From the NCBI RefSeq assembly GCF_988242995.1, contig NZ_OZ547043.1: a DNA stretch of 64,000 bases; one strand, given 5' to 3'. Shown in pieces: positions 32,289 through 33,452 of this stretch; the first letter of the stretch is position 1, and every line of letters starts with the position of its first letter. The translations under genes were made by a program, and so were the position numbers. The notes beneath the pieces are model-generated. The model was not told where the DNA came from. It worked only from the letters and a program-made list of their open reading frames with translations, and searched no databases.

Positions 32289-33452
32289 GTGAGGTGTATT
32301 GTGGGAAAGGAACTGGATGATATCTGCACCAGCTGTCCGTATATCGATGCTGTAAAACGGCACAAACAACAGCTCGGTGCCATAGAGGAATATACACAGT
32401 GGTTAAAAAAAGAACCACGGGCATCTTATTTTTTTCTGTTCCAGCTGTATACCCGCATTCACAATACATTTTTCTCCCAAAAGCAACAACTCCCGTTCAC
32501 TCCCGGTGGCACTCACTGCCCGGAACCTGATGTCATCCTTCGGGACTTAACGCTTTCCCCTGGCTACCACAGTGATTATGCCCCTCAACCCATTCCGGAG
32601 ATGGACAGTTCTGCTGTTGTTCCCCCAACTAATGAAAACACCTCGCCTCCGGAAGATACTCCCGACAACACTCCGGCCGGAGGCAATACCGGACAAGCGG
32701 AAAAGACCAGAAACGCAGGACTCACACCCATTCCTGAAAAACGTTCAGGAATGCCCCCGGAACATCTGCGGTTTGCCACGGGGTTTCCATCGCAACCGAA
32801 GATTGCCGGTCCCAGAGAAAAGCCGATGCGCACCGTGCATCCGGATAAAATCTACCGTGAAATTATATGGTTCTGCTCCAGTTACCTGCTGAAATCCGGA
32901 CCAGAGGCTACGAGGACGATTATCAACTCAGTATTCTCTGAATGGGCCAGCATAAACAATGATTACCCCTCCCCCTTTTCGTGGGTGGACAGCAGGGACA
33001 GTGAACAGTGTGACTGGTTATGGAACGCCATGCAGGTCCGGTGTGTGGGAACCCCGCTGAATCCCCTTACCCCGGAGCAGAAATACTGGTTTGCCTGCGC
33101 CACGTTTGATAACTGGGAGGGCTGGAATGAGCAACAGGTACAGTTTTTACTGGAAAGTAATCCCAGACGGAACAGAGCGAAGTTTACGCAGGTCTCCTTC
33201 CAGGCCCCCAGGATTCAGCATAAAGCGATTCTTCTTGATGAGCTGAAAAGTGCCCGGGAGCAACAAAAAAGGCGTGATGAACGTGCTGATGGTTCCGTCC
33301 CTCTGAAACTGTCCGGAAAAATCCACAAACAGCTTGAAAGTATTGCCCGAAGTCGTGGTGTCCTCCCAAAAAAACTGCTGAATGAAATGATTGAGCAGGC
33401 GTACCATGATTTGGTGGCAACCAGGCAGAACAGCCAAATCGATTCCAGATAA
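32289..33452 (+). CDS. hypothetical protein with Pro/Thr-rich low-complexity segment (start uncertain)
   Basis: 387-aa ORF from a GTG; internal PQPIPEMDSSAVVPPTNENTSPPEDTPDNTPAGGNTGQ segment; followed by a hairpin terminator. Confidence 0.4.
   Translation: MRCIVGKELDDICTSCPYIDAVKRHKQQLGAIEEYTQWLKKEPRASYFFLFQLYTRIHNTFFSQKQQLPFTPGGTHCPEPDVILRDLTLSPGYHSDYAPQPIPEMDSSAVVPPTNENTSPPEDTPDNTPAGGNTGQAEKTRNAGLTPIPEKRSGMPPEHLRFATGFPSQPKIAGPREKPMRTVHPDKIYREIIWFCSSYLLKSGPEATRTIINSVFSEWASINNDYPSPFSWVDSRDSEQCDWLWNAMQVRCVGTPLNPLTPEQKYWFACATFDNWEGWNEQQVQFLLESNPRRNRAKFTQVSFQAPRIQHKAILLDELKSAREQQKRRDERADGSVPLKLSGKIHKQLESIARSRGVLPKKLLNEMIEQAYHDLVATRQNSQIDSR

Follow-up and report, generated by a model that had tools for sequence, protein, structure and literature searches.

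On one strand of contig NZ_OZ547043.1 (RefSeq assembly GCF_988242995.1), between insertion sequence (IS) remnants and a GTPase gene, lies a long open reading frame (ORF) with a nameless product, and the question raised by this locus is what the protein is and what it may do in the element that carries it. The window referred to throughout is the whole 64,000-nucleotide (nt) stretch of DNA that was analysed. The protein is called X, and its residues 1 to 383 are counted from window position 32301 unless the 387-amino acid (aa) numbering, from 32289, is stated; coordinates of the features are collected in Table 1. X belongs to a real protein family that is conserved across genera in a fixed genomic position and has so far gone unnamed, and modelling of its C-terminus indicates that it is most likely a sequence-specific DNA-binding protein. 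It has a predicted DNA-binding domain of a recognizable kind, a new architecture around it, and a very consistent place in a widespread type of genomic island.

A conserved and unnamed protein family

The element that carries X is a CP4-44-type integrative genomic island at the cobU locus of an extraintestinal pathogenic Escherichia coli (ExPEC) strain such as S88. The 2.1 kbp around X are 100% identical to the S88 chromosome, in which 2,034,458 onward corresponds to the window coordinates, and to many other ExPEC and avian pathogenic E. coli (APEC) genomes; the island adjoins cobU, where strain K-12 has the cryptic element CP4-44. The protein is 100% identical to the annotated S88 product, placed at the same window positions by PGAP. 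An earlier first-pass annotation of the window, made by eye, had noted a 387-aa hypothetical protein that it could not recognize and whose start it flagged as uncertain. The ORF is present as described, with its low-complexity stretch (PQPIPEMDSS...GNTGQ, at approximately nt 32586 to 32699), and the start is now resolved in favor of the GTG at 32301 rather than that at 32289, because PGAP uses it, because the diverged E. coli alleles L009 and L013 lack the 32289 GTG and yet keep GGTGTATTGTGG, because a Shine-Dalgarno-like GAGGTG (32291 to 32296) lies 4 nt upstream, and because the resulting N-terminal length agrees with that of distant homologues. The four additional upstream codons are probably not translated.

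A word-indexed search places X in a 97%-identical, 90%-identity cluster of 4098 member sequences, with further E. coli alleles at 72 to 79% identity and full-length homologues at 27 to 32% identity in Citrobacter koseri, Cronobacter sakazakii, and metagenomes; full-length homologues in this range are also credited to Yersinia and Klebsiella. Intact full-length homologues with 20 to 32% identity occur in at least six genera. An exhaustive HMMER profile search of 1.84 billion representatives yields 151 proteins at E ≤ 1e-3, of which 23 reach E ≤ 1e-30. Many of the 151 are ∼300-aa proteins that match the C-terminal two-thirds of X, and Klebsiella, Yersinia, Serratia, Hafnia, Citrobacter, and Escherichia are among the hosts of the family. 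Across the 10 closest aligned sequences there are 70 invariant positions, clustered at residues ∼34 to 50 and 153 to 365, with an unalignable middle. Every name in the recovered family is "hypothetical protein" except for one UniRef label, "Phage replication protein," and one "predicted kinase" label that sits on a 134-aa fragment. A match of the family consensus to uronate isomerase (E = 0.0099) was taken as chance. The first-pass annotation had allowed that the ORF might be a chance frame in degraded DNA, and this is excluded by conservation between genera at ∼30% identity with identical synteny.

X is common in E. coli, and DNA matching X together with the start of the GTPase gene is present in 4,159 of 5,426 complete genomes, and X accompanied by its characteristic upstream DNA in 2,090. 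K-12 has no copy: a tblastn search of X against its CP4-44 region is empty and its yeeP is 5′-truncated, and it is probably through this loss that X escaped study. Only one related locus is found among 2.9 million IMG/VR viral contigs, a scan for which the wide alignment A2 was too diverse, and a phage origin of X is therefore unsupported.

Domain anatomy and predicted fold of X

The AlphaFold2 model of X, built on a 105-sequence alignment, has a mean predicted local distance difference test (pLDDT) score of 79.5 and a predicted template modelling score (pTM) of 0.73, with scores above 90 for most of the chain other than residues 77 to 134. These residues form a hypervariable linker rich in Pro, Thr, Asp, and Asn, and the low scores here agree with the disorder that had been proposed for the Pro/Thr-rich segment. 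The linker is preceded by an N-terminal W-rich unit lying within a helical hairpin (residues 13 to 37 and 39 to 62; pLDDT 92 to 96), in which W38, L39, K41, R44, F48, F49, and L50 are invariant (387-aa numbering). It is followed by a short conserved island, MPPEHLRFATGF (pLDDT block 93), with invariant P157, A163, and G165 (387-aa numbering), that is predicted to dock on the folded part of the protein. The larger C-terminal helical domain contains a second W-rich copy (PSPFSWVDSRDSEQCDWLWNAM, residues 208 to 247), an ATFDNWxGW motif, and an NPxRN motif. Residues 15 to 53 align with residues 208 to 247 in a profile-profile comparison (hhalign, probability 96.4%, E = 1.2e-9), sharing the motif f-W-L-x(4)-R/Q-a/C-x-W-x-W-x-Y/L, and X therefore carries an ancient internal duplication, the N-terminal hairpin being a diverged copy of one portion of the helical domain.

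The last ∼45 residues follow the strand-helix-helix pattern of the CopG/Arc/MetJ repressors (RHH_1, CL0057). X alone has no Pfam match at E ≤ 0.1 and falls below every threshold for ribbon-helix-helix (RHH) families, so its RHH membership rests on the family profile and the model. The family profile matches CopG-family PDB chains at E = 0.04 to 0.07, and on RHH_1 the plurality consensus of the 105 family members reaches 23.8 bits (E = 4.3e-5), above the curated cut-off of 20.5, with a weak NikA-like match as well. When the 105 members are scanned singly, RepB-RCR_reg (PF10723) is matched by 21 of them (best E = 3.7e-6) and RHH_1 (PF01402) by 7 (best E = 5e-4), figures that are taken from the 25 most frequent of 63 Pfam families. 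RHH domains fold only as dimers, and therefore two copies of residues 224 to 383 were modelled with a Gly/Ser linker, using an alignment built in the same way as for the single chain. In this fused-dimer model (mean pLDDT 80.8) both SVPLKLS segments are β-strands that pair with each other in antiparallel fashion, each followed by two helices, and the modelled dimer superposes on the RHH domains of Arc, CopG, MazE, TacA, and PutA. The C-terminus of X is thus modelled as an RHH domain whose paired strands would form the usual dimer; in known RHH proteins the ribbon of the dimer reads the DNA major groove. The first-pass annotation had named profile and structure-prediction searches as a check on the ORF; no family model matches X itself, although the protein is not featureless, having this predicted C-terminal domain and the internal duplication.

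CopG/Arc/MetJ proteins are 45 to 90 aa long, whereas X, at 383 aa, adds ∼330 residues ahead of the RHH domain (the duplicated W-rich helical unit, the 60-residue linker, and the ∼150-residue helical domain), none of which match any described family, such that the architecture around this well-known fold is new. Assignment as a type II RHH antitoxin (of the ParD, MazE, TacA, or CopG-antitoxin kind) was rejected: X is too large, the neighbouring GTPase gene has its own promoter, no toxin family is detected, and PADLOC returns nothing for X.

X is a fast-evolving protein with a conserved DNA-binding end. Among three E. coli alleles, its nonsynonymous (dN) and synonymous (dS) divergences are 0.13 to 0.16 and 0.20 to 0.27 (dN/dS 0.56 to 0.66), compared with a dN of ∼0.015 to 0.02 and a dS of 0.06 to 0.09 (dN/dS 0.17 to 0.35) for the adjacent GTPase gene. 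Constraint is strongest in the helical domain, where dN/dS falls as low as 0.15. The linker (dN 0.27 to 0.46, dS 0.43 to 0.72) lies far above both its flanks and the GTPase gene; its rates point either to mosaic recombination or to low-complexity sequence that aligns unreliably, and its divergence between alleles suggests allele mosaicism or a hypervariable interaction surface.

Genomic context, flanking signals, and candidate functions

The strongest clue to the function of X is its genomic context. In all 10 independent contexts, X is located in an integrase-type island beside a gene for AlpA (PF05930), a gene for a rolling-circle-initiator-like protein (REP_ORF2-G2P / YagK_YfjJ, "inovirus Gp2 family"), or both. 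Beyond the E. coli clade, X is transcribed divergently from the AlpA and Gp2-like genes, which lie on the other strand with 0.3 to 1.1 kb in between; in the rearranged E. coli alleles, the AlpA/Gp2-like arrangement is present with X not divergent. On the other side, the yeeP-like GTPase gene recognized in the first-pass annotation has a clear Pfam domain match, and it is directly downstream of X in every enterobacterial island examined except for the insertion allele L013, at a distance of 83 to 168 nt (83 nt in the window, from the X stop to the ATG at 33536) that is kept down to ∼25% identity. It is absent from three distant loci of the ∼300-aa family, which keep their AlpA or Gp2-like neighbours. 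Beyond the GTPase gene are genes for DUF932 (sometimes after one or more intervening genes), antirestriction, RadC, DUF987, CbeA, CbtA, and DUF4942 proteins. X is therefore positioned at the junction of an excision/replication module (integrase, AlpA, and Gp2-like initiator) and a GTPase-DUF932-antirestriction-RadC-CbeA/CbtA row.

The left arms of these islands carry defense cargo, including OLD/UvrD pairs, Piwi, type I restriction, SIR2, and TIR genes, and islands of Klebsiella, Citrobacter, Yersinia, Serratia, and Cronobacter that have restriction, Gabija-like, Argonaute, SIR2, and TIR cargo harbor relatives of X. Examples to the left of AlpA are at 2831 to 6837 in L002/L003, 4639 to 6870 in L014, and 1 to 8396 in L018, in a set of loci from Citrobacter, Cronobacter, Yersinia, and E. 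coli; the same cargo comprises an OLD-family ATPase with a UvrD helicase and a Piwi-domain protein with a DpnII/MboI-like partner. Analogous Pseudomonas islands, which combine an integrase, AlpA, a Gp2-like protein, and RadC with defense cargo, were described in 2025 and are moved by jumbo-phage transduction (PMC12595487). X is an obvious regulator candidate for islands whose movement and control are still being worked out.

The ORF-poor DNA that had been pointed out upstream of X corresponds to 1.1 kb (31201 to 32300) that carry no annotated feature in S88 and nearly all sampled genomes, a few annotation rows reading "hypothetical protein." Several explanations for this DNA were rejected. A structured RNA is unsupported, there being no Rfam match and no significant folding z-score (−1.4 and −0.9); a hidden pseudogene is not indicated, with tblastn using 11 neighbouring island proteins giving only the tail of a 200-aa gene; and a small ORF of 76 codons from ∼31677 is broken by a 2-nt indel in allele L013. 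Unusually high conservation can also be explained away: divergence between alleles is 0.09 to 0.14, no lower than the dS of the GTPase gene, X itself being the fast evolver, and the divergence of the DNA from 31201 to 32227 is about neutral. This region contains a near-consensus sigma-70-like TTGACA-16-TACGAT (31646 to 31673) and two weak terminator-like hairpins. A hairpin at 31970 to 31987 has a variable loop and a stem that is fixed in three alleles.

Immediately ahead of X is a candidate promoter/operator containing a 13-bp palindrome, GTACATCATGTAC, and its −10-like TAAAAT would place a transcription start ∼27 nt before the GTG. Alleles L009 and L013 retain the site, their changes within it being compatible with wobble pairing. 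A terminator-like match at 32224 to 32244 overlaps the palindrome, and the hairpin with its T-run might also weakly terminate transcription arriving from upstream. The E. coli palindrome is at a position equivalent to the 11-bp-phased TTACTACG repeats and T-rich block of other clades; from their sequences, the palindrome or repeats together with the T-rich block look like a promoter with an operator. Seven of 12 loci have, on the X strand and 69 to 155 bp ahead of the start, direct-repeat pairs resembling (T)TACTAC(G) and spaced exactly 11 bp apart; where present, the degenerate 16-nt pattern is the sole match per ∼21-kb locus, and a repeat finder reports the pairs independently. The pairs or triplets, which span several genera, are at 9846 to 9900 in L002, 1612 to 1633 in L008, 9864 to 9879 in L014, 9870 to 9891 in L016, 9898 to 9914 in L018, and ∼7921 to 7937 in L026, and L025 has a TACTAC-like half-site as an inverted repeat at 7960 to 7989.

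At its other end, the last codons and stop codon of X overlap the sigma-70 promoter of the GTPase gene. A 21-nt box, ATAATYTCAGACAGATATTAT, occurs exactly in 14 fetched loci from five genera, and once in the window compared with 0 expected; among its carriers are E. coli, C. koseri, Cronobacter, Yersinia, and Citrobacter freundii, as well as one IMG/VR contig. K-12 yfjP and ykfA, which have no X upstream, have TTGAAA-15-TATCAT at the equivalent position, and genomic systematic evolution of ligands by exponential enrichment (SELEX) with RpoD holoenzyme lists these as constitutive promoters for ykfA and yfjPQ (PMC3946193).

The terminator that the first-pass annotation placed after X is a GC-rich hairpin with a T-run, preserved by covariation in every clade while the stem sequence differs from one to the next. 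Each of the eight loci compared, as well as K-12 yfjP and ykfA, has it at the equivalent position, and the stems are unrelated between clades (CCCCGCCACC/GGTGCGCGGGG, CCCTCGA/TCGAGGG, and ACGGCAG/CTGCCGT), so that retention of the hairpin is good comparative evidence for a functional RNA element. A simple terminator scan credits it with only a 5-bp stem, and the 8 sites found in the region are not clearly above the 4.2 ± 2.3 expected by chance. The hairpin would serve both as an intrinsic terminator of X transcripts and as an attenuator-like leader hairpin of the GTPase transcript. Because the GTPase gene has its own conserved promoter and hairpin, X and the GTPase row are probably separate transcription units.

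A conserved promoter-plus-hairpin leader of the YeeP/YfjP/YkfA GTPase genes is thereby defined. All examples examined have a sigma-70 promoter with a near-invariant 15-nt spacer, a hairpin and T-run ∼10 nt further on, and a ribosome-binding site; the K-12 leaders are at 11610 to 11700 in L023 (yfjP) and on the minus strand at 11060 to 10965 in L024 (ykfA). A promoter followed immediately by a terminator suggests control by attenuation or antitermination. A Pseudomonas AlpA / lambda Q-type cassette would require a factor-binding element between the −35 and −10 of the promoter, then an intrinsic terminator, and a Q/AlpA-like antiterminator protein; the leader has a conserved promoter with an invariant 15-nt spacer, followed by the hairpin and T-run. 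No antiterminator homologue was identified for the GTPase leader. The homology argument for the island AlpA acting on these hairpins as a Q-like antiterminator was rejected: the AlpA proteins of the X-type islands are 63- to 108-aa PF05930 proteins (68 to 72 aa in most loci), whereas Pseudomonas aeruginosa AlpA is much larger and unrelated-looking, and it uses residues to at least 142 and has eight helices (PMC9371919).

The role to which we give the most weight, although somewhat short of an even chance, is that X is an island regulator of the CopG/Arc kind at the module junction, working probably through the DNA ahead of its own gene and perhaps also through the promoter that its stop codon overlaps. 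Its RHH dimer would bind the repeat or palindromic sites upstream of X, and perhaps also the promoter overlapping the X 3′ end, and would act as a CopG/Arc-style repressor or autoregulator, such that binding sets the expression of X and of the neighbouring modules. The position at the junction beside a replication-initiator gene recalls copG-repB. X is an ordinary kind of object, an uncharacterized accessory-genome protein, and no surprising chemistry is implied.

Several observations weigh against this role. X itself has no match in Pfam, NCBIfam, PHROGs, PADLOC, or the PDB (phmmer), no paper was found on X or mentioning its accession, and the RHH dimer model comes from an artificial fusion. 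Purifying selection on X among the E. coli alleles is weak compared with that on the GTPase gene. In the K-12 elements CP4-57 and CP4-6, the GTPase row has been retained although X is missing, and X is therefore not essential to that row. Lastly, the upstream repeats do not covary with the RHH β-strand: TTACTA repeats occur with strands as unlike as IKLT and QVTT, and the E. coli clade has LKLS without the repeats. Such repeats might accordingly be sites for AlpA (Vis/Cox-like) or elements of the promoter itself; phased direct repeats are what Vis/Cox/AlpA-type proteins bind.

The main rival, which we consider unlikely, is that X is an accessory factor of an origin or origin of transfer (oriT), binding and bending DNA beside the gene for the rolling-circle-type Gp2-like initiator in the manner of TraY, NikA, MbeC, or CopG-RepB, and that it would help or limit nicking, replication, or mobilization of the excised island. 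A divergent REP_ORF2-G2P / YagK_YfjJ neighbour is family-wide, RepB-RCR_reg is the most frequent Pfam match in the family, the NikA-like match points the same way, and the intergenic DNA is AT-rich with phased direct repeats; the antirestriction, RadC, and DUF932 row also resembles the leading regions of conjugative plasmids. However, the repeats keep their distance to the X start (69 to 155 bp) rather than to the Gp2-like gene, which is 0.3 to 1.1 kb off; the E. coli islands have this gene at a distance of more than 4 kb and without the divergent orientation, and neither a nick-site nor a relaxase signature was detected. TraY, a tandem RHH protein of ∼130 aa, resembles X at the level of fold only, and unlike the TraY and NikA systems, the X locus has no conjugative relaxase or mapped oriT.

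A bolder form of the regulator proposal, quite unlikely at present, is that X is an Stl-like master repressor of the widespread, defense-carrying AlpA/Gp2-like islands whose hypervariable linker senses a helper phage or plasmid protein, or else one half of an RHH-GTPase DNA-handling pair. If X were Stl-like, the RHH domain would silence the excision and replication genes and the leading row, and the island would be released only with a vehicle present.

It is rather improbable that X is the DNA-binding adaptor of a two-protein machine with the YeeP-type GTPase, with its linker contacting the GTPase (compare the RHH or wHTH centromere-binding proteins of the ParG-ParF and TubR-TubZ pairs). The two genes are adjacent throughout the enterobacterial islands examined with the close spacing given above, and the order of repeats, RHH protein, and nucleoside triphosphatase (NTPase) resembles that of par loci. 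ParG likewise has a disordered N-terminal tail and a C-terminal RHH domain, and X shares with ParG/omega-type proteins an NTPase-gene neighbour and a position downstream of phased direct repeats. However, the GTPase gene has a promoter of its own and in K-12 is found where X is missing, and distant X family members are without it, so the pairing is not universal; its product is Era/MMR_HSR1-like rather than a ParA ATPase or known cytomotive NTPase, and X is far larger than these proteins and its element is integrated.

Least persuasive among the proposals that give X a DNA-binding role, and very improbable, is that X is an island-borne MatP homologue, in which a four-helix bundle and RHH domain would act on palindromic matS-like sites, tethering or condensing island or chromosomal DNA. 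MatP is the best PDB match of the X family profile (7nyw_I, E = 0.0019 over 128 residues, MatP 10 to 137; 4d8j_B, E = 0.14), and the alignment with 7nyw_I pairs MatP ECGWKWAYL with QCxWAWxYL of the X family, within the shared-looking CxWxWxYL helix. MatP (PF06303 + PF17414) also has a similar element order (a helical bundle, the RHH strand and two helices, and a long C-terminal helix), MatP_C matches two family members, and the 13-bp palindrome is upstream of X. However, hhalign against E. coli MatP covers the RHH domain alone (38 residues, probability 31%), BLASTP is empty, and Foldseek gives E = 9.3 and a template modelling (TM) score of 0.28; X does not match the Pfam N-terminal four-helix bundle of MatP (PF06303), which is absent from the 25 most frequent of the 63 families in the member scan. 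MatP binds matS (GTGACRNYGTCAC) and has a role in the Ter macrodomain, whereas X is island-borne and absent from K-12, and we treat the likeness as a lead rather than a result and do not file X under MatP.

That X is a decaying or functionless frame surviving in a young island is barely credible: dN/dS among the E. coli alleles is high with an almost neutral central third, the island is full of IS elements and pseudogenes, and K-12 has lost X, but intact and diverged homologues in several genera, the invariant residues, a confident predicted fold, the constrained helical domain, and thousands of intact copies all argue otherwise.

Other features of the island

Table 1. Features of X, its flanking DNA, and the surrounding island, with positions in the window
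Feature	Position	Strand	Details
Open frame	32289-33452	+	387 codons
Extra codons from upstream GTG of the ORF track	32289-32300	+	Four codons
X coding sequence	32301-33452	+	383 aa; GTG start, TAA stop; RefSeq WP_000514094.1, "hypothetical protein"
N-terminal W-rich helix-turn-helix-like unit	32343-32459	+	Residues 15-53; motif ...WLKKxxRAxxFFLFxL
Disordered hypervariable Pro/Thr/Asp/Asn-rich linker	32529-32702	+	Residues 77-134; pLDDT <50; no column conservation
Short conserved island in linker	32748-32780	+	∼Residues 150-160
C-terminal all-helical domain	32841-33287	+	Residues 181-329
Predicted ribbon-helix-helix domain	33288-33425	+	∼Residues 330-375; strand SVPLKLS (332-338); helices 339-352 and 356-382
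Native noncoding DNA upstream of X	31201-32227	.	Accompanies X at ≥90% identity in 2,090 of 5,426 complete E. coli genomes
Candidate promoter/operator of X	32228-32267	+	13-bp palindrome (32228-32240), T-rich block, −10-like TAAAAT (32262-32267)
Sigma-70 promoter of GTPase gene	33443-33469	+	−35 TTCCAG (33443-33448), 15-nt spacer ATAATTTCAGACAGA, −10 TATTAT (33464-33469)
GC-rich hairpin and T-run	33480-33506 (hairpin), 33507-33519 (T-run)	+	∼10 nt downstream of −10
YeeP/YfjP/YkfA-type GTPase gene	33536-34408	+	ATG 33536; MMR_HSR1, E = 8.8e-13; PGAP "GTPase family protein"
ISEc43	23289-25705		Second IS66-like element
IS66-family element (tnpA, tnpB, tnpC) and IS21 remnant (istA/istB fragments)	28422-31200		Inserted between 200-aa gene and native DNA upstream of X
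S88 island, first block	26561-26767 (AlpA-type gene)	+	Two zinc-ribbon genes, inovirus-Gp2-family gene, AlpA-type helix-turn-helix gene, 200-aa gene
S88 island, next			IS66 copies, IS21 remnant, 1.1 kb unannotated DNA, X, "GTPase family protein"
S88 island, after GTPase gene			Dynamin/CrfC-like gene, RdcB-like gene, patatin gene
S88 island, then			DUF932, antirestriction, RadC (yeeS), yeeT, cbeA, frameshifted cbtA

The insertion between the 200-aa gene and X is composite, with the IS66 end at 30733 and IS21 remnants extending to ∼31200; in the uninterrupted allele L009, 1.6 kb separate the 200-aa gene from X. The ∼200-aa protein (26861 to 27463) has no Pfam domain and is a constant companion of AlpA in islands of this kind, with homologues in L002 (8602 to 9195), L014 (8452 to 9048), and L016 (7333 to 7866) that are 30 to 78% identical from genus to genus; it is a further conserved but uncharacterized member of the AlpA module.

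A three-gene block at 34626 to 38991 separates the GTPase gene from the DUF932 row and codes for dynamin/CrfC-like, RdcB/YjcZ-like, and patatin-like phospholipase proteins. The dynamin/CrfC-like protein is 798 aa long and scores 558 bits against the NCBIfam CrfC model, for which the cut-off is 1146. Other alleles have an Ag43 autotransporter ahead of this block, which looks like island cargo and is possibly a defense or membrane-remodelling system. At the end of the row, the cbtA toxin gene (43146 to 43519) is annotated as frameshifted, and the antitoxin gene cbeA is intact.

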